64,000 nucleotides of DNA. Source: Hormiphora californensis (Eukaryota; Animalia; Ctenophora). The stretch covers positions 3,968,001 through 4,032,000 of the forward strand of contig CM035362.1 of NCBI GenBank assembly GCA_020137815.1, in the 5' to 3' direction. The translations under genes were made by a program, and so were the position numbers. Below are positions 4,701 through 58,003 of this stretch, one piece after another. Within the stretch, counting starts at the first letter, position 1. Each line of letters begins with the position of its first letter. Below the pieces are notes generated by a model. The model had not been told where the DNA came from, searched no databases, and was given only the letters and a program-made list of their open reading frames with translations.

Positions 4701-7700
4701 CAGCGCCGCCACACGTATTTTGATTGAGTTGTAAGCAGTTTGTATAAACATCACAAATCAAAAGTATTTTTTGTAAGTTGCTCTGTTAGGCAACTGATCA
4801 ATGTTTTGCTGCCTTGTGTTATGCTCTTCGTTTGTTGGATAAAATTTTATGACCCCCCTTTTTCGCAACATTGATTCGAATTTTGCTGACCTCTTACCTA
4901 AAAAAGAGCAAAGTTTTAAATTTTTTACGAAATAGTTCACGGTATTCCGATTTACCGGATTATAAACCCTTTCCGACCTTGAACTTATTAAAAAAGACAT
5001 GACAAATATTCGTCGAATGTAACTATTAACTATTCCACAGCATCGACTGGGGCTAATAGTTATAACGCCAACGCCCAACTGTGAATGTCGTGGACCTTTA
5101 TTCTACTCTCTCTCTATAATAACCGTCACACCCCCTCCCCTTCTTTAGATTTGTCTTCGAGATGTTGGTGAGCTGATGGAGATTGTTATGGAGGGAACGT
5201 ACCACTCAGTACTCACTCAGGACAAATATAATCAAGATATGAGAGAGGATGACCGATTCGATGTAAGTTACACACCATATTTGGGCATATATGACGTCAT
5301 CATATGCCCAAATATGGCAGGAATAAATACAATCAGAACATGGGGAAGCCTTTATGTTTGAAAATAATTTTGTATAACAATTCATATTTTATCTAACTTG
5401 TATAGCGCTTTTTTAGGATGGCTTAGTGAGTGATGCCGCTATCAACTGGAACCAGTTGCAAATCTATGACCCCCAACAACCCTACCCAGCGACGTCCTAT
5501 CGTCGCCTCCCTTTCCTCAACAACTACATTCATGCTGTTCCTGGTCACCATGACCGTACTGCGTTTCGGAAGCTGGAATGTCTGTGGCCTGGCTGGTGAA
5601 GCGAGGTTAGCACACGTCGTCCAGGATTTCGAGAACTACCATCTTTCCGTGGTCGGTATTCAGGAGACCAAGGTCAGAAGCAGCAGAATCGAAACCGTCC
5701 CTGGAGGCCATAAACTTATCCTGTTTAACCAGGATCGCGGACAGTGGCACGGAGGACTCGGCTTTTTGATCAACCGTGATTTCACGGTAAATGTCAAGTC
5801 CTACAAACAAATTAGTGACAGAGTGGCGTACCTGGACGCAGAGCTCCCTGCATCCAGCCCCGACAAGCCACCAACCCATTTACGTTTCATAAACTGTTAC
5901 AGCCCCACCAATCCAAAATCCATCCTCAACCCTCAACTCGCACAACGCTTCTACGATGAGCTCAGTCAAGCTCTGGACGTACCTGCCCGGTACGAACCAT
6001 GGATCCTCGGAGATTTTAACGCTAAAATTGGCAAATTTCCCTTTGACGATCCTGTCAGTGGAATCAACGAGATAATGGGTTCATATTCAATTGGACGGCG
6101 AAACGAAAACGGCCAGCGACTTGCAGACTTTTGCATCACAAACAGCCTCTTTATAGCTAACTCTGCTTTCAAACACTCCTCACGCCACATCTCCACTCGG
6201 ACAGGTTGGGTGAAGGAAAAGAAATCAGGGCTTACAAGGCCGTATTTCTCACAGATTGACTACATTCTGTGCAGGTCCCGAAGCAAAAGTTTCCTCACTG
6301 ACGCAAGGGCCTACGCCGGAACAACACACAGGAGCGATCATAAACTTGTGATTGCCACTGTGAACACTGTCAGGCACAAGCTGTACCGCAAGAGGGCAGT
6401 TGTGTCAAGACAATACGATACCACCACGCTAATTGCTAGTGCAGCAGCACGTGCTGAGTATCAATCGGAACTTGACCAGGGAATAGCAGCTACCGACTCA
6501 TCCGAGTCAACAAACAATGATTTCAAAAACCTCTTCGATAACGTCAAGCTCGCGGCCACAAAATCTGTTGGGTTCAAACCTCTTGCTAGGAAGAGGCACC
6601 ACACATCAGACCCGGAGATAGTGGATATGTCATCTGATCGGAAAACCCTCCTGAACAAACTGAACAACAACTCCCTGAGTATCCGTTCCGGTCTGAGAAA
6701 GAGGATTAACCGTTTATCTGCTGACATCAAGCGCAGACTAAAGGTCCTGCGAAGAGAAGTAGCTGAGAGTCTTGCATCAGCCATTAACAACACTGATGAC
6801 TCACGCAAAATGTTCGAGGCAACAAGACAGCTGGCAGGAACTGTGAAACCTGAGCCAGTCACAGTTCACGACAGTGAAGAAAACCTCGTTCTCAAGGACA
6901 CTGAGAAGGCCAGGATTATTAGGGATTATTTTGAGGAGCACTACACCTGCCCTGCAGACGAGACCCCCCTTGAAGCTTTTCATGGACCTCCTAGACCTCT
7001 GGACACCCCCATCACCGCAGATGAAGTGAAAAGAGCAGCGTCCAAACTAAGGAATGGCAAGGCTGTAGGTCCAGACGGTATCCCTAACGAATTCCTCAAA
7101 CATGCCACTACATCGTTCTACGAGAGTTTCACATCTCTCATCAACCGATGTTTTGAACAGCATGAGTCAGTACCTTCTTTCACAGAAGGTTTCTTGGCAC
7201 CCCTCCAAAAACCTGGTAAACCCAAGGGCCCTCTTAAGAGTATAAGACCCCTATGTTTGCTTAATGGAACCAGAAAGATCCTTTCCATCATTATACTGCA
7301 CCGCATCAGGGACTGTGTGTCATCATATACCGGTCCTTGGCAGCATGCATACAAGCAAGGCACCAGCACCGGAAGTATTGTATGGGCGCAGAAGCTCTTG
7401 ATATCGGTTGTGAAGGAGAAACATTGGTCATTTCACAAAATGGGAATTGATATGTCTAGTGCCTTTGACACCATTAAGAGGCCAGTGCTCCTGAATGTCC
7501 TACAGGATGCAGGGTGCAGTGAGGATGACCTTCGCCTGGTCAGGTTCATGCTAGCTGATACAAGGCTGAGAGTGAGAGTTGATAACTGTTTGTCTGAGGA
7601 GTTTAACGTTTCCATCGGAGCTTTTCAGGGAGATAGTCTGTCTGGCAATCTCTTTACTTTATACCTTGCGGGAGCCCTCAATCACCTACGCTCAATAACA

Positions 7701-10700
7701 TCAACAACCCGACCAAACCCACCAATACAAGAAAACCTACTCCCGGTAGAGTGGGAATATGCAGACGATGTAGATTTCATCGACGAATCTGTTGACAACC
7801 TGACAGCCATGTTACCTATCTGCCAGGAGATTTTAGAGGAGTGGAATCTTCACGTCAACGAGACTAAAACCGAGCACGTCCATGTCTATCTTGCCAGCAA
7901 AGACGAGGTCGATCACAAGGGCGAGCCTGTGAAAGACCGAGAACCATGGAGAAATTGTATCTCACTTGGCTCTAAACTTGGATGCAAGGAGGACATTGAA
8001 CGACGTTGCAACCTTTCAAACCTTGCTTTTAGGAAATACAAAGCAGTTTGGGAACAAGGGCCTAGGATCTCCCTTGATACCAGGCTAAAGATATACGAGG
8101 CGCAAGTGGTATCAGTGCTGATGTACAACTGCAGCAGTTGGGCGGCACCTAAACAGACACTGCACTCACTTGATGTATGCCATAGGAAGCACCTCCGCAA
8201 CATCCTAAACATCAGGTTTCCTATTTGTATCTCCAACAAAACCCTGTACAAAAGGTGCAACACAGCACCCCTCAGCGAACGTGTATCCCGGGCACGGTGG
8301 AAAATGTTCGGTCATATTCTTAGGAGTCAGACCAACGCCCCTGCTATGATGGCTCTTAAATTCGCTGTATCATGTGACATGAGGGGTAGACGAGGGAGGC
8401 ACCAAACAAACCTCTTTTCAGTACTTAAATGTGATCTTAGGGAGAGGGGTTTCGATATATTGAATGATTTTGATGCGGTAATGGAGGCTGCGAGAGACAG
8501 AGTTGGGTGGAGAAGTATGAGTGTCGCTCATCAGTTTATTAAGGAGCTAATTTATTGGACATATTTAAACTGTACGAGTTCTATAATATAATAATATGTA
8601 TAGCGCTATAAAACGTTTCCCCTCTTTCTTCAGAATCCCTATGACTTGATGGTGATCTACTCAGCTCTGATTGATGCTCCTGACATGGCCAGGTTCTTTT
8701 GGGAGAACAGTCGAACACCAATAGCAACTTCCCTTATCGCACACAAGGTAACAAGTTGTTACTAACAACTTAGGATTTGAAGATCTGAGTCTGGAATCTA
8801 TAAATAATCGCCATGACGACATAATCTGAGATATTGTCTATGTTTTTCATTCTATGTCTTCTAATTATTATAACGGGAAGACATATAATATGTCTGGTCT
8901 TAGTTTTGAAATTACCCCTCATCTCGAGCTATAATAATGCATATAGGGGTGACTTCGTAACCAATATATATCTGGGTTTAAGATACAGATTCTAATCGTG
9001 GGAATATTATTCAGGTGTTCCTTTTCCTTGATAAAATGGAGGCAAAATGGGCGCGGATAGACGAGGAAATGACTGAGAAACTGGAAACCTCTGCTAGGTA
9101 AGAATTCACCCGTGCCCGCCTCTGCTAGGTAAGAATTCACCCGTGCCCGCCTCTGCTAGGTAAGAATTCACCCGTGCCCGCCTCTGCTAGGTAAGAATTC
9201 ACCCGTGCCCGCCTCTGCTAGGTAAGAATTCACCCGTGCCCACCTCTGCTAGGTAAGAATTCACCCGTGCCCACCTCTGCTAGGTAAGAATTCACCCGTG
9301 CCCACCTCTGCTAGGTAAGAATTCACCCGTCCCCACCTCTGCTAGGTAAGAATTCACCCGTCCCCACCTCTGGTAGGTAAGAATTCACCCGTCCCCACCT
9401 CTGGTAGGTAAGAATTCACCCGTCCCCACCTCTGCTAGGTAAGAATTCACCCGTCCCCACCTCTGCTAGGTAAGAATTCACCCGTCCCCACCTCTGCTAG
9501 GTAAGAATTCACCCGTCCCCACCTCTGCTAGGTAAGAATTCACCCGTCCCCACCTCTGCTAGGTAAGAATTCACCCGTCCCCACCTCTGCTAGGTAAGAA
9601 TTCACCCGTCCCCACCTCTGGTAGGTAAGAATTCACCCGTCCCCACCTCTGCTAGGTAAGAATTCACCCCTCACCATCTATCATGGTAGTGCTACCCCCA
9701 CCCCCAATTCTGCTAGATAAGTTCAACCCCCCCCCCCCTGATTAAAAAGGGTTCATTTCACCAAATTCTAGAACAAAGAACAGTCAAATCTCCAGATACT
9801 TTGACTCTATAATTATAGTTGTGTCATGTTATATCCTCTAACTTGTTTTCCTCCTTTGCAGAGAGTTTGAAAAGTTGGCATGTGGACTGATGACCATGTG
9901 CTACCACAACTACGATAAACAGGACTGGATACAAATCCTCGTGGTAAGAGTAATAATTTATAGTTTTTAAATAATTAATTATTAATAATACAGTCGGACC
10001 CCGATTTAACGGCCCCCGATTTAGCGGCCCCCCGATTTAACGGCAGCCTAATCTTCCCCCGATATAGAAAATCAACAGTATTTGACTCCGATTTAGCGGA
10101 CACCCCGATTTAACGGACAAAACCCTTTCCCCCGAGGGTGCCGTTAAATCGGGGTCCGACTGATAAAGATTTTGGCCAACTCGACATGTATACTCTTCAC
10201 CAGGAACCGACCGAACTAGGAAATACTGGTCTCTGATTAGCTGATAACCAGTCACGTGACCTAGTAAATAACGAGTTCTGATTGGTTGTTTAGGTACTTG
10301 TTTCGGTCGGTTCCTGCTTTTCACAAAGTACAGTCGGACCCCGATTTACCGGGCCCCGATTTACCAGAACCCCGATTTACCGGGAGGATAAACTTCCCCC
10401 GATATAAGAAATTGACGACATTTTGCCCCGATATACCGGGCACCCCGATTTACCGGGCAAAACCCTTTCCCCCGAGCATCCCGGTAAATCGGGGTCCGAC
10501 TGTATGTCATGTCTAAACTCACAATTCCATTAGGTGCCCCTCAAGGAATGGGGAGGTCTGAACCTGTTTGACCTGGCCACTATTATTGAAGCAAAGAATT
10601 TCATTGCCCACGCTGCATATCAGAGTTATCTAACGGATCTGTGGATGGGGCAACTGAAACCAAGCACCCGGGCTTTCAAACTTTTTGTAAGTTTGCACAT

Positions 10701-13700
10701 CCAAAACGAGATATATCCTGCCCTCTCTTATTTTAGTGACCATCTTGCCGCACACAGTTGTTATGTTTGTACTATAGTTATATTTTACACCCCCCCTCCT
10801 TCTATTTTGTGCAGGTTGGTTTAGTACCTCCGATTCCCATGTTTTTATCATACAACAAGATTCCCATGAGTAAAAAGGACATCGCTCGGAGAATCCTACG
10901 GGGCCAAGAGATAACGGTAAGGTCGTTACCATTGTGTTACCATTGTGGTATGTTACCATGGTTACCGTTGTGGTCTCTTACCATGGTTACCGTTGTGGTC
11001 TGTTACCATGGTTACCCTGTTTTTATTGTTTATTGTGATCAGGCAGATCCTTTCTCTTGTGCTTTGCTCAATGTGAGTGGAGCGAGCTGAGAGTAGGAAT
11101 CGTTGTTTGTATCAGTATAATTTAATCAGTATCAGTATAATTTAATCAGTATCAGTATAATTTAATCAGTATCAGTATAATTTAATCAGTATCAGTATAA
11201 TTTAATCAGTATCAGTATAATTTAATCAGTATCAGTATAATTTAATCAGTATCATTATAATTTAATCAGTATATCAGTATAACTTAACAGCATATCAGTA
11301 TAATTTAATAAGTACATATTACAGGGTATGATAGGGAAAGAAAAGGTAACAATATTTCTTGTGAAAATTATCTCGTACGGTTTTTTTCTTTATATGAAAA
11401 CTTGAACGGAAGCTATCGAGAAGCTTTTCTTTGCTTACTCAACAAGTCTTTGCTATACAAAACGCTACCGTTCGTCCGTTCGCATAATATATACTCGACT
11501 AAACTTTTCGAGAAGATCTTACTTCCGGACAGACACATGACCATAACAATTCTAACTAAACTGCAGTTTTGAGAGTTTCATCGCACACAGCTCTGATATT
11601 ATTGTTGCAACATTCCCTTGTTGAGTAAGGGGAGATCTCACCAGCAGCCCTTACTCAACAACTGTATTGCAGCGCCATACCCCATTTGACAGTGCGCTGA
11701 TTAGATGGGGTCGCCGCGCCAGACAGCTCAACAAAGATTAACTGCACTCTAATATTGGGTGGCCTGACTATGTACATTGTTCATAGATTAATCCCTTACT
11801 CAAATTTTCGCCACCCTTTTCAGACACGTCGGAAGCCGGTTGACGACGACGTTGAATTCGCACCCCAACTTCGGGCATACGACTACGATGAAAACGAAAC
11901 GAGAAGATCACCAACTTGGAAAGAGAAATTCTACTATTTCTATACATCACCTGTCATCAAGTTTTACCTAAACACCCTGACATACCTTCTCTTTTTATTG
12001 TTATATGGGTGAGTAATGACGTCACACAGGTGTAATGACGTCACACAGGTGTAATGACGTCACACAGGTGTAATGACGTCACACAGGTGTAATGCACGTC
12101 ACACAGGTGTAATGACGTCACACAGGTGTAATGCACGTCACACAGGTGTAATGACGTCACACAGGTGTAATGACGTCACACAGGTGTAATGACGTCACAC
12201 AGGTGTAATGACGTCACACAGGTGTAATGCCGTCACACAGGTGTAATGACGTCACACAGGTGTAATGACGTCACACAGGTGTAATGACGTCACACAGGCG
12301 TAATGACGTCACACAAGTGTAATGACGTCACACAGGTGTAATGACGTCACAAACGTGTAATGACGTCACACAGGTGTAATGACGTCACACAGGTGTAATG
12401 ACGTCACACAGGTGTAATGACGTCACACAGGTGTAATGACGTCACAAACGTGTAATGACGTCACACAGGTGTAATGCACGTGATGTAGGTAATGGCGTCA
12501 TGTGATATGAGTGATATGTCAAGCAGTATCTGATATCGGTTATTGTATCTCTCAAATCGAAAACTTTAACCCGATACGATAGTATTTTTAACTCACTATT
12601 ATTCACTTACTAATCAACTAATTAACTAATTATAACTTCTCTGAATCTCAGATTTGGTTTATTAGTTGAGAATGATGGCCTAGTGATAGACAAGAATGGA
12701 TCCAGGCTGGAGTACCAAGATCTCTATACCATGGTCTTTGTGCTGTCTACCGTACCAGTCGAGTTAAATCAGGTACGTCTCCAACACCATCTTTGGGCAT
12801 ATAATGACGTCATCACATGCCTAAATATGGTTTGTACTAGTACTGCAGTCGGACCCCGATTTACCGGGTAAAACCCTTTCCCCCGAGCATCCCGGTAAAT
12901 CGGGGTATGACTGTATGTCTTGATAAACTATCAAGTTTCTTGTTCCTATTGATTATTTAATTAAGGAGTTAATTAATTTTAATCACTGCTCTTTTTTAAT
13001 TAAGGAGTTAATTAATTTTAATCACTGCTCTAGATACGAAATGGTCGGACGAAAAGTAATTGGAAAAAGTTCAAGGATCACTTTATGGATTTGTATAACT
13101 TTATGGACGTTATAGCTGTTCTCATGTTCATTGGTACGTTGCCCTTATATGGTATTGGTATGTTGCCCATATATGGTATTGTGATGTTGTCTGGAATCTT
13201 CTGTTTGCTAATCCAATCTAAGAATTTTCAAACGGTTGCTGAACTGTCTGTATAATAAATCACATGTTAACATCTTTCTCTTCATCTTCTTATATCCTAA
13301 CGATTCTCAGGTGCATTCGGATTGAAAGCCAGTACCCCCTGGATATGCGCCAAGTCGCAACCAGAGGCCTGTATTGCAGATGGCGGACACACAGCACTCG
13401 ATCTAAACAACTTCGGGTATTATAAATCATGTCTGAACAATCAATCCATGATCACATTTAGACTCAATATTATACCTTCATAAACTAATTCATTAAGCTT
13501 TTCTTTACATGTTAGCTTGCATGATTGATCGATTTCAATCGGTTTTCCTCGCGTGATTCCTCACGATGCACGTGCAGCGCGTGAGTTCTGATGTACTTAG
13601 TTGCACGTGCAACGGAGTGCGGGAGAACTCACGCACTCAAATACACGTGCAACGCGTGAGTTCTCACGCACTCAGATGCACGTGCAGCGCGTGAGTTCTC

Positions 13701-16700
13701 ACGCACTCAGTTGCACGTGTAGCATGATTAACGCCATAAAATTCCTCTTTCCAGTTCGTACCACATCAGTTCAATGCTATCCACCTTGGTATTTGTCATC
13801 TACATGTTTCGTCTTATGGCCTACTTCCGCATCCACCCATTGATTGGTCCTAAAATCTTCACTCTTCAACGGATGACTATAGACCTAGTGTTCTTCCTCT
13901 TCTTACTCATGGTAATTAAACTAATTAGCTAATTAATCAATTACCCACCTCCCGCAGGACGTACCACGCCAACAGGCTGCTCTCCGCTATGTGTTTTAGT
14001 TTCTACTGCTTTCGGTTCGTCCAGTTATTTGAGATAAATGACCAAATTGGACCTAAAGTGTTTATGCTTAAAAAAATGGCTATTGATCTCTTCTTCTTCC
14101 TCTTCCTCCTTTTGGTAAATTTGAAGCGAGGGATATAGAGACATATATAGGAAGAGATAAGTTGCATATACACTTTTAGCACGCGTTTCATGGCTAGTTT
14201 TTAGCACATATTGGAGCTCCAAGTCCAAAGTCGATGAAAATTTCACAACTTTTTATGCCCTAATAATCCAACACGCCCTTTTAGTAAAATATCTTGAACC
14301 AACCCGTATTTGACTAGCATTTTTTAATCCCATCCCCTCCCCAGGTGTTCACTGTTTCCTACGGTGTTGCATCTCAAGCTCTGCTCTACCCATTCCGTGA
14401 GGACAGTTGGTCTGGGGCAGCTTTTGAACTTCTCGGCAGGTCATACCTTAATGTGTTCGGGGAGATTGATATGGACGGGTTCGAGGATGATCTTAAATCA
14501 GGTAGGATAATTATATGATGGGTTGATTAATTTGTTAATTTGTTAATTGGGCGAATTATCCTACTGATAAGATTCTAACCAACCTTTCGAGTTTTTTTAT
14601 AACAGGTGCATATTGACATACCACTCATTCCCTATAATACCAAATAGTTATTCGACTAATTATTATCTACTAATCATTCAACTAATCATTCAACTAATTA
14701 TTTAATTAGGCCATTGCGAGTTCAACGACACCAGTACCTTTCTCCACACCAACTTTACCGCGTATTCCAGCGAAATAGCTGATGTTGCCGATCTTGAGTG
14801 CACTAAGGATAATTTGCTTGAATACACCACGGTTAATATAATTCGCAGTAATTAGCAATAATTAGCAGTTTATAATTAGCAGTTATTTATTAGCAGTAAT
14901 TAGGCAGTTAGCATCACTCACAAAGCAAATTCATATGCAGCTAATGACACCTTCATGTCACCATTACAAATTTGCTATAGAAACAATCCTTGTGCTAGGT
15001 CACTGCGGGACGTATTCTACGTTTCCGTGGACAAATTGGGAGGCTTACAGCCCCGCGGAGATTAACAAGTCTAGTACCTGCACCTTCGATAATTGCAAGG
15101 AATATACAATTGTAAATTAATTAGCCGTTAATTAATTAGCCGTTCTAATTCTAGCCGTTAGACTATGATACTAGTTCCATATGGATCACTGTAAAGCTCT
15201 CTGATGTGTTACTAAAAATACTATAAAACACTCCCCACTCTACTAATTATCTAATTACTCTAATTATAAAGGAAGCAGCACAATACTAATCTATGACACG
15301 TTCTGTAATCTTCTGTCAGAGCAATGGCCTGACCCATTCTCGCTTCTCTCAAATAAGCGCGAGAACTGTGGTCAGAGCATTGGCCTGACAGGTAATCTTC
15401 AGATCATACTACCGCGCTCTTTCCAATAACTTCTTACTCTAACCCTACTTGATAACGAAGTTACCCCTCCCGTGCCAGAGCGCGAAGGGGTTATTTCGTA
15501 ACCAATTACTCTACTTGGTAAAGATTCTAGGAACTATATTATAGCCCACATACCCCTTTCATCTTCTCATGTCCATGAATCTTGTTGAGTCAACAGCATG
15601 AAACCACTATAATAATTGTAATACTGACTTGCTGCAGTATTACAAGACAGTGGGACACCCTGTACTGACTTGCTGCAGTATGGTGGGGGATGGTAGAAGC
15701 CGGCCACTGCCCTCTTCTTGGCCACTACCATGAAAGCTGGTCCATTTTAAGCCTGCACCCATCCCCATGCCTCTATTATTTCCGCCTCCCCATCTCCCTC
15801 TCCCAGCTGCCTATTTTAAGCCCAATATCTCCCTCTCTGACAGGCCCCATCTCCCTCTCCCAGCTGCCTATTTTAAGCCCATGATCTCCCTCTGACAGGC
15901 CACTGTGTAGGCTGGAATACTACCCTCTTATTGCACCCCTCTATGGGAAAAATGGCCTGTACTACGAAAAATCTTATGCACGATACTAAGGTATAAAGTG
16001 GAGTTACATGTGGTGTTACTTGTGGAGTTACATGGGGTGTTACATGTGGTGTTACATGTGCTGTTACATGTTACAATGTTACATGTGGTGTTACATGTTA
16101 CATGTGCCTTGCAAGCTACTGTGTCTATTACGGTGTCTATCACGCACACAAATGTCCTTACCTTCGTGGTAATGACCTCGTGGAAATTACCTCGTGGAAA
16201 TGACCTCGTGGAAATGACCTGATCGTTACGGCTACGCCACGCTGATTGCTGAACACCCTCGCCTATAGTTTGGTCCGTGAGGTTCAGTTTACTTCATGCT
16301 ACACGTGCAACCTGCTATGCTATCAATGTGCCTGTATGTGTTACATGTGATATGAAATTGATGCTGGATGGTTTATTTTGCAATGTGTAGTCCATAACAT
16401 TATGTATAGTCAGACCCCCGATTTACCAGGCAGAACCCTTTCCCCCGAGCATCCCGGTTAATCAGGGTCCGACTGTACTTGTATAGCCTTTCTCAGCCTT
16501 TCTCAGCAGCACTTTTTGTAGCCCAAACTCAGGAACCGACCGAATAAGGAAATACTGGTCCCTGATTGGCTGATAACCAGTCACGTGCCCTAAATAACGA
16601 ATTCTGATTGGTTGTTTACTTGTGTCGGTCGGTTCCTATACCCACAACAATTCCTCTAACACACCCTCACTAGGTGGGTCAAGTAAACTTCTACACTGCT

Positions 16701-19700
16701 TTTGGGTTGCTCTGTATGTACCTTCTGTTTGTCAACGTCATGCTTATCAACCTTCTCATCGCTATCTTCTCAAACACCTACGAAAATGTGGAGCAGCAAT
16801 CTGGTAAGAGCTGGAGGTTAACATTATTGAATGTGTAATATTATTGAATGTGTAACATCATATTGTTGTGTAACATCAGCTGCTTATAATAACCTCTCCA
16901 CCCCCGCCAGGTATCATCTACAAGACCCAACGTGCTGAGATGATCCTGGAATTCATGCAAAGACCTCCCCTTCCCAACCCTCTTTCCCTTCTATACTTCT
17001 CATTCCTCGTGTCGCGGAAGATCTATCAGAAATATATCAAGAGGATTAACTATGAGCGGGATCTACAGAAGATGAGTAAGTTAATATGTGCTGAACCATT
17101 AGCCAGGAACCGACCGAATCAGGAAATACTGGTCCCTGATTGGCTGATAACCAGTCACGTGACCTAAATAACGAGTTCTGATTGGTTGTTTACTTGTGTC
17201 GGTCGGATTAGCGAGACCTAGGACTGTGTATAATTAGCTCATTTGGTACTTTCTCCAATCGTTGCAGCTTGGTTCCCACAAACTTACGAAACTACTTTTA
17301 CTCCCTAACAATTCTGCCTCTCCCCAGTATATTTTCTAACAATTCTCCCTCTCTACCCAGTGTCAAATAAAACTACTTTTACCCCCTCATATTATCTAAC
17401 AAATTCTCTGTCCAGTATCAAATATGCCAAGTGGACGGCACAGTTCGATGGCCTACAGAAGTTCTCTGATGGAGGCGGAGTGTAGGGCCCAGTTTATACG
17501 GAAAACTAAGCTAGAGGCAGGAAATCAAACAGTCTCAGCCCTCTCAAGGTATACATATCAGAAATATAACATGGAGAAAATGCATAACGATCATTACAAA
17601 TCCACTAGGTGTATTGCAATAAACCCCACAACAAGAACAATTGTTTTTGCCAAAAATATCACTTTTTCTCACTGTTTTTTATTCACATTATTATTGAGCC
17701 ACGCGGTTATAGAATAACCCCATACTGGTCCCTGATTGGCTGATAACCAGTCACGTGACCTAAATAACGAGTTCTGATTGGCTTATAGAATAACCCCATT
17801 ACAGCGCTAGAACCGCAATATTGTAAGTGTATCTTCTTCAAAACCTAGTTCTCTACTTAGTCCTTGACCTCTCATTCTATCGTGTGACTTAATAAATCAC
17901 AGAACGTTGACCTGTATACTGTATAATTCTACACAATATACTATACTATATTCTATACTATATTCTATACAATATACTATACCCTTCGAGGGATACTATA
18001 CCCTTCGAGGGATATCGCTACACTATCATACATGATATGACAGTGGTTACTTTTACTGTTTGAATACTCATTAAATAAAATGACCCTTTACTAAGCCGCC
18101 CTACAAGTCACTATAACAGCCTTTTTCTAATCCTCCACTCCCCCATCCACACCACCCCTCCACATGTGGACCCCCTCCACATATGACACCTCTCCCTCCA
18201 TGCCTTGTCCATGACACATCTGACAGCACACTATTTTTTTACAGCAATGAGAACAACTTTGAGCCTACGTAAGTGCGAGCTGTAAACGCTGTGTGTATGC
18301 TGCACGTGTAAAGCAGGAACCGACCGAATCAAGAAATACTGGTCCCTGATTGGCTGATAACCAGTCACGTGACCTAAATAACGAGTTATGATTGGTTGTT
18401 TACTTGTGTCGGTCGGTTCCTGGTGTAAAGAAGCATATAAATCATCAACTAATTATATATGCAGCTAATTAATAACTGTATATCCTGCTAATTATATCCT
18501 GCTAATTATATCCTGCTAATTAAGTTCATTAAATTGGAAATTCTTAACTTGATTTATACTGTGTGACATATATACTCATAAAAAAGCACTATATTCTTAC
18601 GCAATAGCTGTTGACTTTGCAAGATAGAATATGCTTCATAACTACACCATTACATAACCCATCCTCCCTACCCAGACAATACCACGACCTATCGAACCGT
18701 ATAATGAGGCTGGAGAGTCAGCTTGTAAGCACGGGAGATAAGATATCGGAGATACATGAAGTGGTAGCCCAGAGGGCACGGATCAAAATAAAGGTAACCC
18801 ACGTGGGAGAGGGGTGTCGGTATGAGGTACCTCGATTTACGGGGCAAATCCCTTTTTATTTCACTGATCAGCATCCCGGTAAATTATTATAATATAGGGA
18901 GGTGTTGCAATTAGCAATTCAATGCTGGGTTACCATGTTTTGGCATGAGGCTCAAATAACAAAGGGTAGTATTGCCTCACTAGAGTCACATGATATAGCG
19001 GTGTTTCCAGTTTCGTGCAAGTTTCAATGGACCATTTAATTAAAGTAAATCACTCAATTATAGTTGCTGTCAACAAATAATAAGCTACAAAAAGACTGTA
19101 TACAAATCTGTAGATGCAACTTACATAGACCAATTGAGTGTTTACTAGGGTACAGACAGACACTGTGGGTTGGGTTTTACTTGCTATACTTTCTGTTAAC
19201 TGCTAAACTTTAACTGTGATCTTCCTTCATAAATCAGAAAATAGCTCGTACTATACCGTTAGCCCTTTTTTAGTTCGTACAAACAATGAAACATAAACTA
19301 GTAAAGAACATGATGAATATCAATGATATATGACTTGTTTGATTGAAAACGAGCTGTATCTTCTATGAAGAATCCATGCAGCTCACGTATTCAATAAAAC
19401 AAGTTTCCCGTTTCTCTCAGCACCCCTCGGGCGACAACGACCACTCTGACAGACATCCACCAAACGCGGCTCAGGTTTTCCAAAATCTCCTTAAAAAAGT
19501 CAAGAGACGCCGCGAGACAAGCGAGGGCGCCGAGTCCCTGGGCGAGTCGCTGGGCGAGGTTGAATCTACCGAGGTAGAGCTGAGTGAGAATTGAGAAAGG
19601 CACGTGCTGACCATTAGATCAGTGGACCGTCTAGTGAATGTGCGTGTGGACCGTGTGTGGAAGTTTGCACGTGCTGACGAGATAACACATTGGAGTATAT

Positions 19701-22700
19701 GCACGAGATATTATGAATACTCTGACACCCCCTGATTTTAAACAGAGCATGTTTTCTGCTGAGTGACACTGCATTGATCTGCCACACTGTCCCACACTGT
19801 CCCACATAGTCGCTGCTCGAGGGACAGTGTAGACAGTCAATGACATTATTATATTGACATTATTCAAATAAAATTAGTTTCGGAGCTGGGATACTGATAT
19901 GTTATTTTATGACTGGGTTATAATTGCTCTGATCACCACTGCACTGCTGTTTCCATATTTTTTCTGCTGTTGACTGTTGACCATATATGGACATATGACG
20001 TCATCATGATTTCTGCTGAAACTCCCCCTCCCCCTCCCCCTCTGACCCCTTCCCTCACAACCCCCCTCCCCTTCCAGCCATCTATAGATCAGTGGAAGGG
20101 TATAATCTCCCACACCCTCTCTCTAACATCACCCTATCCTGGTACGGAGGTGGAACGGTTCCCGCTAACTAAGGAACAAGCCAACTGGAAGGTATGTTAT
20201 GATATGTGATATGTGATATGTGATATGTGATATGTGATATGTGATATGTGATACGTGATCTTGTGTGTGATATGTGATCTTGTGTGTGATATGATCTTGT
20301 ATGTGATGTGTGATCTTGTATGTGATATGTGATCTTGTGTGTGATATGTGATCTTGTGTGTGATATGTGATCTTGTGTGTGATATGTGATATTGTGTGTG
20401 ATATGTGATCTTGTGTGTGATATTTCTGTGTGACTAGAAATAATTTGGCTCTTAAACTAAAAATCCATCACATTTCCTCAAATATTCTATAGTTTTTGGG
20501 GATATCTGAAAATCTCCTTGCCCTATAGATTCCAAAAATTATTCTTGCTTTTATCTAACAGCCCATATTAGGTCATTTAATCCCACGCTCCTTATTAGGT
20601 TATTTTATCCCAACTTCTATTCCTTATTAGGTAAAGGTAGATAACTACACTCCCCCTACCTTTGATAATAAAAGTATTCCCCACTTGGACCCCATCAATC
20701 CGTAAGTAACTAAATGCAGTTCAATATTCTATCTGTTTGAAACAGTATTCTATCTGAGAGCTAACTGGAATGAAAAGTGAAACTGAAAGCTAAACTAATC
20801 GCGGCATAGTAAACCTGACGACAGCTCTGACTAGCATCATGACTAATTATAATACTGATTGACTATAACATACTAGACTACAGTATAGTACTGACTAATT
20901 AACTGACCAATTAACTGACCAATTAACTGACTAATTAACTGACTAATTAACTGACTAATTAACTGACCAATTGACTGACCAATTGACTGACTAATTAACT
21001 GACTAATTAACTGACTAATTACCGGACTAATTACCGGACTAATTAATTGACTAATTACCTGATCAATTAATGACTAATTAACTGACTAATTAACTGACTA
21101 ACTAACTGACTCGCAGGGAGGTATATCTCATGAAGATTCCAGCGCCCAAACGAGATCACACCTGCCATTCACCGAGTCCCGACACAACGACAGACACTAC
21201 TGAAGACAAACCGACAGATCAGACTGGTACAGAGGGGACTACTGCAGATCAGACTACAGCAGAGGGGACTACTGCTGTAGAGGGATCGGGGGCAACTAGG
21301 GATTACATGATCGTCAATGATATCTGTCTGGTCAATGTGTTTAGAGATGACACTGAAGAAGACATGTACGAACAAACAACCACATGATAACCACATAGCA
21401 ACCACATAACAACCACATAACAACCACATAACAACCACATAACAACCACATAACAACCACATAACAACCACATAACAACCACATAACGACCACATAACAA
21501 CCACATAACGACCACACGGGTCATGGACATATTACATAATTACCCAATTAGTGTAATTACTACTAAATGACTATACCTAACACACGGTGTGTTCTAAACC
21601 AGTTTACACGCTCTCTTTTCCAGGGCCGAAATAAAGTTCAACCATGTCGACAATAATGGAGTTGACAGGATCAGTTACATGGGTCGGTACAATGTGTCAT
21701 CTTCTGGCAATTACCCAAGGTAATTAATTAGTATAATTAACTCTAATTAATTAGTAACAGATAGTAAATAACTAATTAGCGGATCAGTTATATTAGTTTT
21801 GAATCACTTCATTGCGTCCCTTAATATAAACAACATATTATAGTCACCTGATCATATGAGCCAGGAATTTAATATACTGACTCCACACTAGGAACCCGAA
21901 AGGAAGGACGGGGCTAGAGGGACGAGGCAACCTACCCCGATGGGGACCCAACAAGATGTCAATTATCATCGTTAGCAGGTAATGGTTTGAGAACTTTATA
22001 ATTTCCAAAAATATATCTCAAATTGAACCAGTATTCTCCTATAATATGCTTCGTATTTATTGTCTCTTTATCTTTTATTTCCCTCAAAATACTCCCTATA
22101 AATACATAAGATTTAGTTAGTTAATATAATTAATTTAATTAACTAACTAATTAATCAGGTATAAAGTTTAGTTAACTAATTAATTAACTAACTATAAAGT
22201 TTAATTAACTAATTAACTAATCAGGTATAAGGAGGTTACAACCCATACCGACCCACAACATGGGCACAGTATGATTGTCAATAAACAGGGTAAACCAGTG
22301 GCAGAGGTGCTCCTGTTGAGGATGGAGGGTTCCGAGAACTATGTCTTCCCTCAGGTGAGAGAGAGAACTATGTCTTCCCTCAGGTGAGAGAGTAATATCT
22401 ACAATGGATATAGTGTCTATAATTAATAAGGTAATATGGTAGTTCTGGGCTGAACTTTTTCGACCGCTTTAAAGCGCTTTAAAGCGTTTGAGAAAGCGCT
22501 TTATAGCGCTATAAAGCGCTTTAAAGCGGTACCGCTTTAAAGCGCACCGCTTTAAAGCGCTTTTAAAGCGCTAAAAGCGCTTTAAAGCGATTCTTGTAGC
22601 GATTTAAAGCGCTTCCGAAAGCGCTATAAAGCGCTTTCGCAAGCGCTTTAAAGCGCTACCGCTATAAAGCGCTTTTTTTGTTCAAAATCCAAAAATAAAG

Positions 22701-25307
22701 CGCTTTAAAGTGCTTTAAAAGCGCTTTAAAAAGCGCTATAAAGCGCTTTTAAGAACGCTTTATAGCGCTTTAAAGCGCTTTTAGCGCTTTATAGCGCTTT
22801 AAAGCGCTTTAAATCGTACAATAGCGCTTTAAAGCGCTTTTTAAAGCGCTTTTAAAAGCGGTCTAAAAAGCACTTTTAAAAAGTGGTTTAAAAAGCGCTA
22901 CAAAGCGCTATAAAGCGCTTTTTAAAGCGCTATAAAGCTATAAAGCGCTTTATAGCGCTATAAAAAGCGCTTTCGAAAGCGCTTTATAGCGCTTTAAAAA
23001 GCGCTTTATAGCGCTATAAAAAGCGCTTTTTTGGCGCTTTCGAAAGCGCTTTTAAGCGCTTTTTATAGCGCTTTAAAAAGCGCTTGATAAAGTGCTTTTT
23101 AGCGAAAGCGCTTTATAGCGCTACAAAAAGCGCTTTAAAGCGCTATAAAAAGCGCTTTATAGCGCTTTAAAAAGGGTAGAAGGGCCACGGCCCTTGAACA
23201 CCGCCACGTGGCGGTTTTAACCGCCACGTGGCCCCTGGACGTGGCGTCAATTCTCAGGACGTGGCGCCAATGAGCCTTTTTGGCGGTGTTCATGTGGCGT
23301 TAATAGTCGAAATTGGCGCTTCGAATTGGCGCTTTTCTTTTTTGGCCCCAGGGACGTGGCGTTGGCCCCAGGACGTGGCGTCAATTTTTGAGTGGCGGAG
23401 ATGTCAAAATTTTTTGGCGCTTTCGGATGACGCCACACCCGAAAAATTCGAATCGCCAATTTGTTTTTTTGGCCTATCATTTGGCGCTAATATTTGGCGC
23501 TAATTTTTTGGCGCCATATAATTTGGCGCCATATAAACTGATGCCAGAAACCCCCTAGTGGCTCCTAGGGACCCCCAGGAGGCGCTAGAGTCACCTAAAA
23601 GCCCCCTAGAAGGCTCCAAGAGACCCCTAGAGGCCACTAGAGTCGATTAGAGTCCCTCAAAAGCCCAGAAAGATCGAATGCAGCCCCAGATGAGCACACA
23701 AGGCCCCCAAAAAGCCACCAAAGTTCTCTAGAGTCCCCTGAAACGCCCCAAGAGGACACCAGAGGTCCCTGAATGCCCGTAGAAGTCCCTAAAGACCCAC
23801 AGAGGCATCAAGGATTGAACAGTTAAAAAAGAGCTGTGTTTATGTAAATATATCGCCATGTAAGAACTCAATTAGCGCCATGTAAATGGCACTAATAATT
23901 ACTTTGGCGCTTTGATGTGGCGGAGTTTATGTGGCGCCAATTATGTGGCGTCAATTATTGACGCCACACCGAAAATTCAAAAAAACCACGTGGCGCTAAA
24001 ATCGACGAAAAATCCATTGGCGCCATCCTTTCAAAATTGACGCCACGTCCTGGGGCCAACGCCACGCCCCTGGGGCCAAAAAAGAAAAGCGCCAATTCGA
24101 AGCGCCAATTTCGACTATTAACGCCACATGAACACCGCCAAAAAGGCTCATTGGCGCCACGTCCTGAGAATTGACGCCACGTCCAGGGGCCACGTGGCGG
24201 TTAAAACCGCCACGTGGCGGTGTTCAAGGGCCGTGGCCCTTCTACCTTAAAAAGCGGTTTCAAAAGCGCTAAAAAAAGCGCTTTATAGCGCTATAAAAAG
24301 CGCTTTATAGCGCTTTGTAGCGCTTTTAAAGCGTTTGAGAAAGCGCTTTAAATCGCTACAAGAATCGCTTTAAAGCGCTTTTAGCGCTTTAAAAGCGCTT
24401 TAAAGCGGTGCGCTTTAAAGCGGTACCGCTTTAAAGCGCTTTATAGCGCTATAAAGCGCTTTCTCAAACGCTTTAAAGCGCTTTAAAGCGGTCGAAAATG
24501 TTCAGCCCAGAACTACCATATTACCATTAATAATCACATACTATAGTGTGTATAATGACATGTCTATAGGTATAATTGAGTTCTCATAATTTGGTGGAAA
24601 CATTGGATAAGATTTGTTCTCTTGCTTCTTGTCCTAAACATAGCTTGTTCTTTCAGGGATTCCTGGCTCCAAAAGAATCCAGCCGCCACTCACATCAACG
24701 AATTCTGTTGGACCTGTGCTTTGACTATCAGAACAGGACAAAACAGGATCAAAAGACGCTCGTCCACTCTGTTGATCAGCTGTTCAAACACCACAAAGAG
24801 GTACTCCTTCACAACTAATTATTTATTGTGCTCCTTCATAAAACAAGACGTTTATGTATACTTGCTCCTTCATAAAACACTCTATTGTCAGATCGAGAGG
24901 AGTTACCTGGATGATTCAATGAACACAGACCACGCATGGATTGAAGTTGTGGTTGCCTCTGTGCATGATAATCAATACAACATGCCTCATAGCTTCCAGA
25001 ATGGACGAGGGGTAATTATTAATTAATTAATTAGTTAATTAATATTAATTCTATAATTTGTCCTGAAAATCTCATTAGTTTTCCACAATTAATGCCATCT
25101 CTCCTCCCTCAGGTGGAATCAGTTGAATGGGTATCCCTGGTGGAGCGGCCCCACATACATTCCAACATGGCAGCTGTCATGAAGAAGACCCTGACCATGC
25201 TCAAAGCATACAACCCATACAACACCAATGTCACACCCCCCGCCTCTCCCTCTCTAGAGAGAAAGGAAGAACTACCCAGCAGCAGCAGTACTAATCGGGT
25301 ATGTTAA
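1714..25307 (+). CDS. TRPM2: TRPM2-like cation channel with C-terminal NUDT9-H domain; 5' exons lie upstream of the window
   Basis: Phase-consistent GT-AG exons: 1714-1810, 1909-1989, 2242-2346, 2837-2909, 3244-3391, 3719-3895, 4106-4291, 4525-4563, 5149-5262, 8634-8747, 9015-9097, 9862-9943, 10534-10686, 10815-10916, 11824-12008, 12652-12772, 13034-13133, 13311-13416, [13755-13911 or 13958-14114], 14345-14501, [14710-14831 or 14999-15111 or 15899-15990], 16674-16803, 16911-17075, 17416-17548, 18676-18793, 20078-20191, 20631-20701, 21624-21719, 21892-21978, 22225-22354, 24657-24800, 24892-25011, 25113-25307. TRPM motifs: LEPNHSHFFLCDDG, EGG..GSGRAAD, QLKLAITW, FYTSPVIKF, IGPK, YLNVFGEI, NVMLINLLIAIF, QRPPLPNP. 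NUDT9-H motifs: NPKGRTGLEGRG..WGPN and YLDD..NTDHAW. Confidence 0.93.
2325..2669 (+). repeat. Tandem array of about 60-70 bp units copying the exon 3' end and donor site (5 donor copies)
   Basis: caaccattagttgtcattcgag|gtatgttat repeated, with junctions at 2346, 2415, 2474, 2546 and 2616. Confidence 0.9.
2918..3026. mobile_element. hAT-like MITE, about 109 bp (family A)
   Basis: TIRs CAGGAACCGACCG...CGGTCGGTTCCT with 8-bp TSD GTAAGTGC (2910-2917 and 3027-3034). Other copies: about 10201-10316, 16530-16638, 17105-17206, 17722-17782 (partial), 18314-18422 (TSD GTGTAAAG), 27975-28083 (TSD CTCTCTGT), 28868-28955, 35593-35701, 54662-54770 (TSD ATTTATCA), 57598-57683. Confidence 0.88.
5410..8596 (+). 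mobile_element. Full-length non-LTR retrotransposon (RTE-like, single APE-RT ORF) in a TRPM intron
   Basis: 11-bp TSD TGTATAGCGCT at 5399-5409 and 8597-8607; uninterrupted ORF; short TAA/TATAA-repeat tail. Confidence 0.93.
5430..8591 (+). CDS. LINE endonuclease/reverse transcriptase polyprotein
   Basis: APE motifs GSWNV, GIQET, LGDFNAKIG, IDYIL and SDH; RT motifs KAVGPDGI, RPLCLL, IDMSSAFD, QGDSLS and YADD. Confidence 0.95.
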   Translation: MMPLSTGTSCKSMTPNNPTQRRPIVASLSSTTTFMLFLVTMTVLRFGSWNVCGLAGEARLAHVVQDFENYHLSVVGIQETKVRSSRIETVPGGHKLILFNQDRGQWHGGLGFLINRDFTVNVKSYKQISDRVAYLDAELPASSPDKPPTHLRFINCYSPTNPKSILNPQLAQRFYDELSQALDVPARYEPWILGDFNAKIGKFPFDDPVSGINEIMGSYSIGRRNENGQRLADFCITNSLFIANSAFKHSSRHISTRTGWVKEKKSGLTRPYFSQIDYILCRSRSKSFLTDARAYAGTTHRSDHKLVIATVNTVRHKLYRKRAVVSRQYDTTTLIASAAARAEYQSELDQGIAATDSSESTNNDFKNLFDNVKLAATKSVGFKPLARKRHHTSDPEIVDMSSDRKTLLNKLNNNSLSIRSGLRKRINRLSADIKRRLKVLRREVAESLASAINNTDDSRKMFEATRQLAGTVKPEPVTVHDSEENLVLKDTEKARIIRDYFEEHYTCPADETPLEAFHGPPRPLDTPITADEVKRAASKLRNGKAVGPDGIPNEFLKHATTSFYESFTSLINRCFEQHESVPSFTEGFLAPLQKPGKPKGPLKSIRPLCLLNGTRKILSIIILHRIRDCVSSYTGPWQHAYKQGTSTGSIVWAQKLLISVVKEKHWSFHKMGIDMSSAFDTIKRPVLLNVLQDAGCSEDDLRLVRFMLADTRLRVRVDNCLSEEFNVSIGAFQGDSLSGNLFTLYLAGALNHLRSITSTTRPNPPIQENLLPVEWEYADDVDFIDESVDNLTAMLPICQEILEEWNLHVNETKTEHVHVYLASKDEVDHKGEPVKDREPWRNCISLGSKLGCKEDIERRCNLSNLAFRKYKAVWEQGPRISLDTRLKIYEAQVVSVLMYNCSSWAAPKQTLHSLDVCHRKHLRNILNIRFPICISNKTLYKRCNTAPLSERVSRARWKMFGHILRSQTNAPAMMALKFAVSCDMRGRRGRHQTNLFSVLKCDLRERGFDILNDFDAVMEAARDRVGWRSMSVAHQFIKELIYWTYLNCTSSII
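9088..9669 (+). repeat. 31-bp minisatellite (about 19 copies), each unit containing the exon end and donor site
   Basis: Unit cctctgctag|gtaagaattcacccgt(g/c)ccc(g/a); the first junction (9097) is the real exon boundary. Confidence 0.95.
9991..10502. mobile_element. Cluster of Tc1/mariner-like MITEs (family B, CAGTCGGACCCCGATTT termini) around a family A MITE
   Basis: Copies at 9991-10162 and 10331-10502 with TIRs, the second flanked by TA on both sides; related copies at about 12846-12913, 16408-16476, 34400-34571 and 47348-47412. Confidence 0.85.
11111..11310. repeat. 20-bp minisatellite
   Basis: (atcagtataatttaatcagt)n. Confidence 0.9.
12013..12482. repeat. 19-bp minisatellite starting just after a donor site
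   Basis: (gtaatgacgtcacacaggt)n, about 24 copies; most units contain TGACGTCA and CAG|GT. Confidence 0.92.
13755..13911 (+). CDS. TRPM alternative exon A (S4, S4-S5 linker, start of S5)
   Basis: 157 nt, ttccag|...|gtaatt; encodes SYHISSMLSTLVFVIYMFRLMAYFRIHPLIGPKIFTLQRMTIDLVFFLFLLM. Confidence 0.88.
13958..14114 (+). CDS. TRPM alternative exon B (paralogue of exon A)
   Basis: 157 nt with the same phases, ccgcag|...|gtaaat; encodes TYHANRLLSAMCFSFYCFRFVQLFEINDQIGPKVFMLKKMAIDLFFFLFLLL. Confidence 0.88.
14710..14831 (+). CDS. TRPM pore-turret alternative exon C1
   Basis: 122 nt, phase 1 to 0; encodes (G)HCEFNDTSTFLHTNFTAYSSEIADVADLECTKDNLLEYTT. Confidence 0.8.
14999..15111 (+). CDS. TRPM pore-turret alternative exon C2
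   Basis: 113 nt, phase 1 to 0; encodes (G)HCGTYSTFPWTNWEAYSPAEINKSSTCTFDNCKEYTI, clearly homologous to C1. Confidence 0.8.
15899..15990 (+). CDS. TRPM pore-turret alternative exon C3
   Basis: 92 nt, phase 1 to 0, ctgacag|...|gtataa; encodes (G)HCVGWNTTLLLHPSMGKMACTTKNLMHDTK. Confidence 0.72.
20198..20423. repeat. Degenerate GATATGT/GATCTTGTGT repeat after a donor site
   Basis: Seen directly in the sequence. Confidence 0.85.
20891..21110. repeat. 12-bp (CTGACTAATTAA)n array upstream of a candidate exon
   Basis: Seen directly; ends at ctgactcgcag (21116). Confidence 0.85.
21376..21516. repeat. 11-bp (ACAACCACATA)n array
   Basis: Seen directly in the sequence. Confidence 0.9.
22430..24525. 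mobile_element. Foldback-like non-autonomous DNA transposon (Merlin-like termini) built from AAAGCGCTTT palindromic repeats
   Basis: TIRs GGTAATATGGTAGTTCTGGGCTGAAC...GTTCAGCCCAGAACTACCATATTACC; 8-bp TSD ATTAATAA (22422-22429 and 24526-24533). Confidence 0.88.
23175..24246. mobile_element. Second non-autonomous element nested inside the foldback element
   Basis: About 210-bp TIRs GGTAGAAGGGCC...GGCCCTTCTACC; 8-bp TSD TTAAAAAG (23167-23174 and 24247-24254). Confidence 0.9.
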
Positions 25308-39900: not shown

Positions 39901-41696
39901 GGTAATTGAGAGGTAATTATACCTGTCATAACGGTAATTGGGAGGTAATTATACCTGTCATAACGGTAATTGGGAGGTAATTATACCTGTCATAACGGTA
40001 ATTGAGAGCGGAGAATGTAGTCGAGATGGGTTTATCGGGGTCCTGGAACAAATTGTTCGCTGTCGCTAGCCACCCTTCCTCCGGGTTAACAATGCTCATA
40101 TAGTCGTCACCTGTGTAGTGGTGGGGATCATATTATAGGGGAGATAGATGACATGTTACAGGTAACTTATATTAGTGGTGTGACGTCATTGGTCACACAC
40201 TTACCTGACAGGTAACCCTTCCAATGATTAGCCGTATCCCACGCAGGAAGGGGTATCAGCCCAGTTGCAGTGGATCTGAGGGGCACAAAACCACTCTGCT
40301 GGTACGCAATGTTTCCCTGAGAAATATAGACACTTTTTACCGAGCCACTAAACTCCATGGTATTTAATTAAGAAGCTGAAGTATATTTTACCAAATAATA
40401 TGCTGAGTCACACACCTGACTATCCGCAAAAAGAAAGTTAAGGCCAGCTAAATTCCTGGCAACCAATTTCCTCGCTTCCTCCACATTTTTACAGGTAGGT
40501 AATTTGTGAAACACCTCTGACATGATAATCTCACCCTCAAGGGGCATCGCAAATGACGTGGCTAGGAACTTCCCATCTCGAATTGGTTGCTTAGATGCCT
40601 CCAGGTTTCGTTCAATTGTGTTTCCCTCCGCCGTATCATAAAAGTAGTACGTCTCCCCGGCGATCTCAACAACGCGTCCTTTCAGCTGTAGGAACACCCC
40701 ATCACGTTCATATTTCCCATCCTTAACATTTTCCACGAAATAATCGGACATATCTAGCATACCAAAGGTGAGAGTTGCCGTGATATCTTGAGTTCTACCA
40801 AACATCGTGGTTGGGATTGATGTTATTCCAATACCAAATAGATCAAAACCTTTTCCATCTGTATAGTGTAGTTCGTGAAAGAATCCAGGAAGCCTCGACA
40901 CATCCATGTGGGGGTCCGATGCCATGATGGGCTTTCCACTTTCCGTTCTTTTCCCGGACACTACCCAGTTGTTACTGTTTATCATCTTAGGAACCTCGCT
41001 CAGATCGTGATCTGCAAAGGGCCGGAAATCCGATATTGATCGATAAATTTCAATAAGTTCATCCGTTAGATTAGTGTAGTGAGGAGCAAACACTTCTGTA
41101 AGTAAATCCCTGTTATCCGTTTCACGGAGAATCTCAAGACCCAACTTTTCAACTTGAAGGAAAATGTCGTTGAGCCCGGCGTATGCTACAAATTTAAACA
41201 TTGACATAACATCAACGGGGGTAAATAACTCAGGGTGGTAGTTGAGTAAAACGAACTCTAAAGGGCGAGGGTTATTGGACATCCAAGAATTAATACCATC
41301 CACATAGTGCTGGTACACAGCTAAAGACTCCTTGGGTATAGAATCATAATTCGCCTTACTTCTCCCATACACATTCATCTGTTGTGCCTTGATGTCTGTG
41401 TCTAGAGAGGCTCTACTGAAGGGCAAGTACTTGGTTAATAGACCCTGGGATGCGAGACGAATCAGACACAACTGTACGTATCTATCGTGGGCCTGAATCC
41501 ACCCAATGGCCTTGAAGAAATCTTCATCACGATTTCCCCCCGTTGCTTTGAAATACATCCCCTCGGCCCGTGTAAAGTTTATCTGTGAGCCGGTGATGTT
41601 GGTCATGTAGGTCTTCCCAACGTATTCATACTCCCAACTAATCTGTGAAACTAATACAGCCAGGAAACCGGCGAGCAGCCACAAAATCTTGTTCAT
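33312..41696 (-). CDS. Penicillin acylase / acyl-homoserine-lactone acylase family Ntn-hydrolase (peptidase S45), 8 coding exons, about 740 aa, N-terminal hydrophobic signal
   Basis: Exons 41696-40416, 40316-40205, 40110-39987, 38278-38151, 37856-37734, 37568-37435, 37252-37076 and 33455-33312 sum to 2223 nt in frame. Motifs: GWIQAHDRYVQL, PLEFVLL, catalytic SNNWVVSGKRTESGKPIMASDPHM, FADSQGNIAY, NPEEGWLATANN, SWRMVTDL..PGGPSGNPLS. Confidence 0.9.
33890..34090. repeat. (GA)n microsatellite inside a degenerate inverted-repeat element (about 33694-34123)
   Basis: gtaatggtgatagtcacggattgaa and ttcaatccgtgactatcaccattacc flank the tract. Confidence 0.8.
34244..35791 (+). CDS. Secreted protein of about 187 aa (possible galactose-binding/discoidin/F-lectin-like fold), nested antisense in the last acylase intron
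   Basis: Exons 34244-34307, 34625-34847, 34929-35031, 35421-35580 and 35778-35791 total 564 nt in frame. Signal peptide MFLFYFLVLPILASG; motifs LDKDLST, VNKIVIYNKFRTNWFDP, DQIYTYPC, IVFSEIV. The fold assignment is inference. Confidence 0.8.
35082..35200. mobile_element. Small hairpin MITE
   Basis: tatatctgtttgg.ttcattattcacaccaatggtgttggcgggtg followed by its reverse complement. Confidence 0.7.
35910..36868. mobile_element. Non-autonomous Tc1/mariner-like element
   Basis: About 160-bp TIRs CCGCGTGGGCCAATAAAAAGGG..., flanked by TA on both sides; no transposase ORF. Confidence 0.85.
38381..40008 (-). repeat. 32-bp minisatellite (about 51 copies), each unit containing the acylase exon-3 end and donor site
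   Basis: Minus-strand unit c(t/c)caattaccgttatgacag|gtataattacct; the real junction is at 39987. Confidence 0.96.

Positions 41697-53568: not shown

Positions 53569-58003
<4,435 letters not shown>

Follow-up and report, generated by a model that had tools for sequence, protein, structure and literature searches.

A TRPM2-like channel gene of the ctenophore Hormiphora californensis carries three tandem homologous exons for the loop behind its selectivity filter, and from their sequence these post-filter-loop exons are likely to be spliced in a mutually exclusive manner. The gene lies in a stretch of 64,000 nt (contig CM035362.1 of assembly GCA_020137815.1, positions 3,968,001 to 4,032,000), called the window here and numbered from its first letter. 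The three exons, C1 to C3, and the constant exons on either side of them are as follows:

14345..14501, plus strand, constant filter exon with the end of S5, the pore helix, the filter FGE and acidic post-filter residues; ends in phase 1
14710..14831, plus strand, C1, 122 nt, flanked by AG..GTT, 41 aa, two Cys, two sequons, charge -7, two His
14999..15111, plus strand, C2, 113 nt, flanked by AG..GTA, 38 aa, three Cys, one sequon, charge -2, one His
15899..15990, plus strand, C3, 92 nt, flanked by AG..GTA, 31 aa, two Cys, one sequon, charge +2, three His
16674..16803, plus strand, constant S6 exon, starting in phase 0; Ion_trans at E 0.0006, 82% identity to both lobate orthologs

An earlier note, made from the letters of this DNA, had placed between the filter and S6 exons three exons of 122, 113 and 92 nt running from phase 1 to phase 0, exactly one of which would be needed for the frame. 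These coordinates, lengths and phases were borne out, and the three open combinations among the eight of C1, C2 and C3 are the three singles. As only one exon at a time fits the frame, mutually exclusive use, and with it several versions of the channel, is likely. The motifs described before were also recovered in all three, namely a GHC start, a CTxxN motif (CTKDN, CTFDN and CTTKN) and a sequon between the cysteines (NDT and NFT in C1, NKS in C2, NTT in C3); C2 has a third cysteine beyond the pair described in that note, and a possible alternative in-frame acceptor at 14981, 18 nt upstream of the exon. The combination of acceptor and GHC, a pattern picked after the fact, was found three times within the 2172-nt interval, whereas 20000 Markov resamples averaged 0.029 occurrences and none of them reached three.

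The host gene was modelled over the following span, its 5' end not being located inside the window and a few small exons being left out:

1714..25287, plus strand, modelled host gene, a TRPM2-like channel with SLOG/MHR region, six-helix core, TRP region and NUDT9-homology tail; open frame of 1315 aa

Its nearest proteins are those of the ctenophores Mnemiopsis leidyi and Bolinopsis microptera (about 70-75% identity), and JGI protein P0035, a ctenophore ortholog, is 72% identical to it. SLOG, TRPM2 and Ion_trans domains were found in the orthologs by Pfam search, and together with exon-by-exon tblastn and TRPM fold matches this established the SLOG/MHR N-terminus, the six-helix core and the TRP region. 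The filter exon is about 70-72% identical to Mnemiopsis and Bolinopsis. A C-terminal NUDT9-homology domain is likewise present: the ortholog tail matches NUDT9 with E 1.8e-30 and also nvTRPM2, and window exons 20078-25287 match the NUDT9-homology tails of the orthologs. The best solved-structure match of P0035 is nvTRPM2 of Nematostella (6CO7, E 5.5e-144). In a 14-row protein tree, a quick version rather than a careful search, the window gene, P0035, Mnemiopsis and Bolinopsis formed one clade (SH-aLRT 100), within which the window gene branched outside the other three with support 87. Eight predicted GT..AG introns are joined by contigs of run X1 (RNA by guess), indicating that the host gene is transcribed and spliced in the source organism or a nearly identical one. 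The ENA fragment P0016 matches the window over the 9943>10534 junction, shows intron-like residues after 10686 and then ends; it is either a partly spliced message or reflects a different intron content. Within introns of the gene lie an intact-looking LINE element at 5430-8591 on the same strand (endonuclease and reverse transcriptase, 1053-aa ORF) and a large inverted-repeat element at 22440-24520, with AAAGCGCTTT-rich arms, in the intron before the Nudix exon.

The Nudix box in the tail (24657-24800) reads RILLDL in the window and RVLLDL, RVILDL and RVVLDL in three orthologs (RVLLDL in P0035). The canonical box of an active invertebrate-type TRPM2 chanzyme, defined as REUXEE in the excerpts of PMC8145809 cited here, was found neither in the window gene nor in P0035; NUDT9 has REFGEE, and the ctenophore position resembles the RILRQE of human TRPM2. 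From this degenerate box, ADP-ribose hydrolysis is predicted to be lost, and the sequences would make this loss independent of that in vertebrates. Given that, according to a figure legend of the same 2021 review, ctenophores had yielded no TRPM2-like sequences (PMC8145809), the host gene and its degenerate box inform how TRPM2 lost its enzyme activity.

With GHC removed, similarity between the loop exons has a z of 7.5 for C1-C2 and 3.8 for C1-C3; that of C2-C3 alone is not significant (z 1.2), these two being linked only via C1 and the profile described below. Identical residues amount to 20 of 37 (C1/C2), 11 of 31 (C1/C3) and 10 of 31 (C2/C3), so that the loops to be exchanged would be 32-54% identical in their residues, with both cysteines included. 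Third codon positions are identical at 24%, 29% and 26% in the same pairs, which is chance level, and different codons are used at 14 of the 20 identical C1/C2 residues. Neutral copies with a forced open frame, aligned in the same manner, never showed the C1/C2 pattern (0 of 7500); that of C1/C3 arose at five levels of divergence in 0, 3, 32, 38 and 35 out of 1500 copies each. At the observed divergence, 3-5 per 100000 neutral copies retained the splice sites together with the frame, GHC and CT. Chance-level third positions together with kept residues, cysteines and splice sites point to long purifying selection, strong for C1/C2 and moderate for C3, which speaks against a lack of purifying selection on C2 and C3, the outcome named earlier as fatal to the idea. 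To judge from its codons, each copy was under purifying selection over a long period, a signal compatible with a recent loss of use.

The same loop could be compared in other ctenophore proteins. An HMM built only from the Mnemiopsis, Bolinopsis and P0035 loops, searched against 2734 six-frame ORF segments of the window, ranked C1, C3 and C2 at the top (E 1.4e-6, 9.3e-5 and 0.0045), followed by a segment with E 0.13. Against C1 the P0035 loop scores 86 (z ~11), against C2 40 and against C3 26, and both this loop and C1 have two sequons and a charge of -7. As P0035 comprises 1528 aa on a 5045-nt contig, its C1-like loop is presumably a spliced one. The Bolinopsis loop best matches C3, with a score of 34 (z ~6) vs 22 and 14 for the other two exons, and the two have in common their short length and a Trp that follows GHC; Mnemiopsis likewise has a short, C3-like length in its loop, yet this loop scores 40 both to C1 and to Bolinopsis. 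These equal scores weaken an assignment of Mnemiopsis to C1 and Bolinopsis to C3 as different paralogs. Two paralogous ctenophore TRPM proteins, P0046 and P0049, are 92.5% identical and differ mostly in the same post-filter loop, which represents either fast evolution or a second case of swapped exons; fast evolution of this kind can explain the loop difference between Mnemiopsis and Bolinopsis. Overall, the loop sequences suggest an old split into long and short forms. A tree of the loops leaves all three inner branches open, and C1, C2 and C3 as a lineage-specific clade were not rejected (AU p 0.109). No counterpart of C2 in other species was found by word-index searches and a full profile search, and an atlas search gave no usable match. 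In a metagenome scan for orthologous DNA, 57 pattern matches yielded one locus, which turned out to be a long ORF resembling prokaryotic ones, matched by chance. A single loop is present in all 12 Bolinopsis isoforms and in the three Mnemiopsis isoforms read (of four cluster members), and for paralog genes, too, the listed isoforms show a single loop per gene (one gene with 15 of its 31 isoforms listed, another with eight loop-bearing rows). As annotation pipelines list limited isoforms, one loop per gene model is weak evidence.

A second pair of alternative exons lies upstream of the filter exon:

13755..13911, plus strand, exon A, alternative S4-S5 exon, 157 nt
13958..14114, plus strand, exon B, alternative S4-S5 exon, 157 nt, conserved (94-96% to lobate orthologs)

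The intron between A and B, at 46 nt, is the shortest of the 34 gaps in the model, the next having 91 nt; a short intron between two exons can exclude their double inclusion sterically. One X1 contig skips A (joint 13415>13957), and one partly covers the filter exon, which is joined there to exon B. Of the 12 Bolinopsis isoforms, two use a different S4-S5 exon; with identities of 48% to A and 45% to B, this is not clearly the ortholog of A. In a close relative, the genomic ORF P0082 retains 34 of 36 residues of A and all 52 of B, the two lying in tandem across a different short spacer, and exon B is also matched by the Pleurobrachia bachei protein P0137. From the exon swap in Bolinopsis and the skipping of A in X1, the S4-S5 pair proposed in the earlier note is real, and it is better supported than the C cluster. 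No further duplicated exons besides this pair and the C cluster were found among the 32 modelled exons.

On a matrix derived from 29 constitutive exons the splice sites of the C exons are weak, the C2 donor scoring below all 29. A recent 49-nt tandem duplication (15788-15898) has copied the polypyrimidine tract and acceptor of C3, creating a decoy acceptor at 15844 that scores 8.8 vs 2.9 for the true C3 acceptor on this small matrix; splicing to the decoy leads to a stop. No piece or joint of C1-C3 occurs among the X1 pieces listed, which is not evidence of absence for such shallow contigs with 55 further pieces outside the list. X1 depth was 0.65 in bin 14914-15487 and 0.08 in bin 15488-16061; as it could stem from C2, from the open segment X introduced below or from a dispersed palindromic repeat at 15447-15506, it is not usable as evidence for the C exons. 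The gaps between the C exons measure 167 and 787 nt, the shortest constitutive gap 91 nt. A scan for RNA pairing of the splice sites with the introns gave no common docking site in the C cluster, and only two of 24 site-intron pairs exceeded all 25 shuffles, so that RNA pairing was rejected as the mechanism of exclusion.

Other explanations of the cluster have to be weighed against mutually exclusive splicing. A constitutive use of one exon, most likely C1, with C2 and C3 formerly functional, now rarely or never spliced in and not yet decayed, would agree with the finding that no gene had more than one loop in the lobate isoforms read, with C1 as the copy with a clear outside counterpart, and with the weak C2 donor and the recent decoy before C3. 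We consider this unlikely, though the most serious of the alternatives: C2 and C3 would both have to lose their function recently and together, after their third positions were saturated, C3 resembles the loop in use in Bolinopsis, and the one-loop models count for little given the limited isoforms in the annotation. A further open segment deserves mention here:

15272..15391, plus strand, X, unproven open segment, 120 nt, flanked by AG..GT, phase 1 to 1, two Cys; keeps the frame only as X+C3

With X added, four of 16 combinations keep the frame (C1, C2, C3 and X+C3), and the remainder run into a stop 41-108 codons beyond the filter exon. As a real optional exon before C3, X would give a 71-aa loop with four cysteines, like the long loops of ctenophore paralogs, whose C-E-R-W-P motif is loosely like the C..EQWP of X, and its donor is good. 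Such an exon appears improbable, since X is not homologous to C1-C3, has no significant similarity to any loop tested and was not found by the outside-species profile; its acceptor is among the weakest, it contains a 19-nt near-palindromic repeat, one arm of which is complementary to the C3 acceptor at 12 of 14 positions, and many open AG..GT segments arise by chance in the interval between filter and S6. Searched individually against Pfam, neither the filter exon nor C1, C2, C3, X, A or B was recognised.

Every combination of more than one C exon stops before S6, and gaps of 167 and 787 nt, compared with 91 nt, pose no steric barrier to double inclusion, both of which would suit C2 and C3 as mainly poison exons that are included with C1, shift the frame and lower the channel level by message decay. 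A poison exon does not need a conserved protein sequence, yet residues, the Cys pair and sequons are kept over saturated third positions, making this role very improbable. An assembly artefact or collapsed alleles can practically be dismissed, even with the locus seen in one assembly only: alleles would be near-identical, but the copies are 43-49% identical in DNA, differ in length and show no blastn similarity.

Mutually exclusive splicing of C1-C3 would act on the outer pore. In the earlier note the exons had been labelled as encoding the pore turret, which proved wrong: in TRPM2 the term turret denotes the segment connecting S5 to the pore helix (excerpts of PMC8145809), and the C exons encode the end of the post-filter helix and the post-filter loop, after the filter. 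Its assignment of the cysteines to the TRPM pair with a glycosylation site in between is supported by alignment through the Mnemiopsis ortholog, which puts them on C996 and C1008 of human TRPM2 and GHC on H995-C996; the second cysteine is nearly invariant in 45 TRPM sequences. A model of the Mnemiopsis stretch (mean pLDDT 86.7) matches TRPM structures; in it the C-exon region comprises the last part of the post-filter helix, then a loop with the lowest confidence of the core (74-75), and finally a short helix preceding S6. As the filter and the acidic post-filter residues are encoded in the constant exon, basic selectivity is predicted to be common to all versions. According to the parts of the literature cited, the disulfide of the TRPM2 post-filter loop stabilises the pore (PMC8145809), loop residues H995, D1002, E1010 and D1012 affect acid inhibition (PMC2945533) and H995 affects copper inactivation (PMC4227687); the normal function of TRPM8 depends on both the disulfide and the glycan, and this glycan, situated between the two cysteines, shifts gating (PMC10301734); the pharmacology of TRPM3 is set by loop length, with the Cys pair serving as a redox switch (PMC9290681, PMC12905292). 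From these mammalian data and the differences of the C1-C3 loops in length, charge, histidines, sequons and cysteines we infer that exon choice may tune proton, metal and redox sensitivity as well as gating. The earlier suggestion of tuning is thereby a reasonable one for pH and metal ions, with mammalian mutants as its basis; for toxins it would be speculative.

The process could be envisaged as follows. Each C exon would be used singly in some cells, and messages with none, two or three of them would stop early and be removed by nonsense-mediated decay. The weak splice sites would leave the choice to trans-acting factors, and exclusivity would rest on these sites and on the decay of frame-shifted messages. 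In the protein, the Cys pair is expected to form the TRPM outer-pore disulfide with a glycan on the loop between, giving channel versions that share filter and gate and are predicted to differ at the pore mouth in length, charge and sugar sites. The loops (41 aa, charge -7; 38 aa, -2 and a spare Cys; 31 aa, +2 and three His) may leave basic selectivity as it is and instead shift proton and metal inhibition, redox sensitivity, the range of gating or delivery to the surface. With the second, presumably sterically excluded S4-S5 pair the number of core variants could rise to six at most, the 2x3 proposed in the earlier note, which might additionally allow heterotetramers. More tentatively, the gene may represent two-cluster combinatorial splicing on one TRPM2-like channel, in which an old S4-S5 switch is combined with three loops of opposite charge that were duplicated before the cydippid/lobate split, yielding six or more cell-type-specific cores that differ in their sensitivity to acid, metals and redox state, the hydrolase motif being lost independently of vertebrates; we regard this full scheme as possible, yet doubtful.

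Outside the channel gene the window contains, on the minus strand, at 40368-41720 a single-exon ORF of 450 aa assigned to the penicillin amidase family (Pfam E 2.1e-53), which continues in spliced exons downstream. This family is mostly known from bacteria, so that the ORF is possibly an old gene transfer. A VPS15-like kinase/helical ORF (50360-52153, minus strand) and a weak rhodopsin-family 7TM ORF (54810-55835, plus strand) were also seen. Exact matches in the protein collection searched were found for 0 of four window ORFs.

Ctenophores are placed at or near the base of animals, and the cases in which swapped pore-loop exons were tested are protostome Cav3 and mammalian TRPM3; if true, a three-way loop cluster together with an S4-S5 pair would mean that the same design arose in a lineage that branched off very early. 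Non-bilaterians have been reported with lower exon-skipping rates than bilaterians (PMC6335736, in part). Three selected loops with charges from -7 to +2 on an identical filter and gate would also be a natural experiment on the TRPM post-filter loop. No description of a swapped-loop cluster in ctenophores or TRPM channels was found in the literature searched, including parts of PMC13483504, PMC11526382, PMC6335736 and PMC6790391; this covers mostly texts other than subscription journals and supplements, where ctenophore isoform tables could list one.

Among known systems, nvTRPM2 of Nematostella and other invertebrate TRPM2 chanzymes share with the window gene the FGE filter, acidic post-filter residues and the NUDT9-homology tail; they differ in that no such exon cluster is described for them in the excerpts of PMC8145809 and in the degenerate Nudix box of the window gene. 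Exons 12a/12b of protostome Cav3 (Lymnaea LCav3) are, like the C cluster, tandem-duplicated, encode an extracellular pore-domain loop outside the filter and differ in length and cysteine number; they are mutually exclusive, as C1-C3 probably are, and their choice was shown to shift Na+ vs Ca2+ permeation (PMC5379919, in part). Cav3 has two such exons, for the turret and descending helix before the filter, whereas the C cluster has three for the loop after it; Cav3 belongs to another branch of the channel superfamily with the exons acting in one domain of four, in contrast to all four subunits of the ctenophore TRPM. As the function of the Cav3 exons was tested and C1-C3 are known from sequence, the likeness is one of working principle only, and C1-C3 do not belong with the turret exons. 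The long and short pore-loop variants of TRPM3 concern the same family and region, and there outer-loop splicing changes the pharmacology (sections of PMC9290681 and PMC12905292); these variants differ in loop length of one sequence, whereas the ctenophore gene would swap whole paralogous loops. The C cluster is best read as belonging to the general class of tandem duplicated exon substitutions, in which homologous exons are swapped and which are enriched in ion channels, often ancient and convergent (PMC9741552). The survey defining this class covers human and Drosophila, with no mention of TRP or TRPM in the text searched; here the animal is a ctenophore, and two clusters lie in adjacent parts of the channel core.
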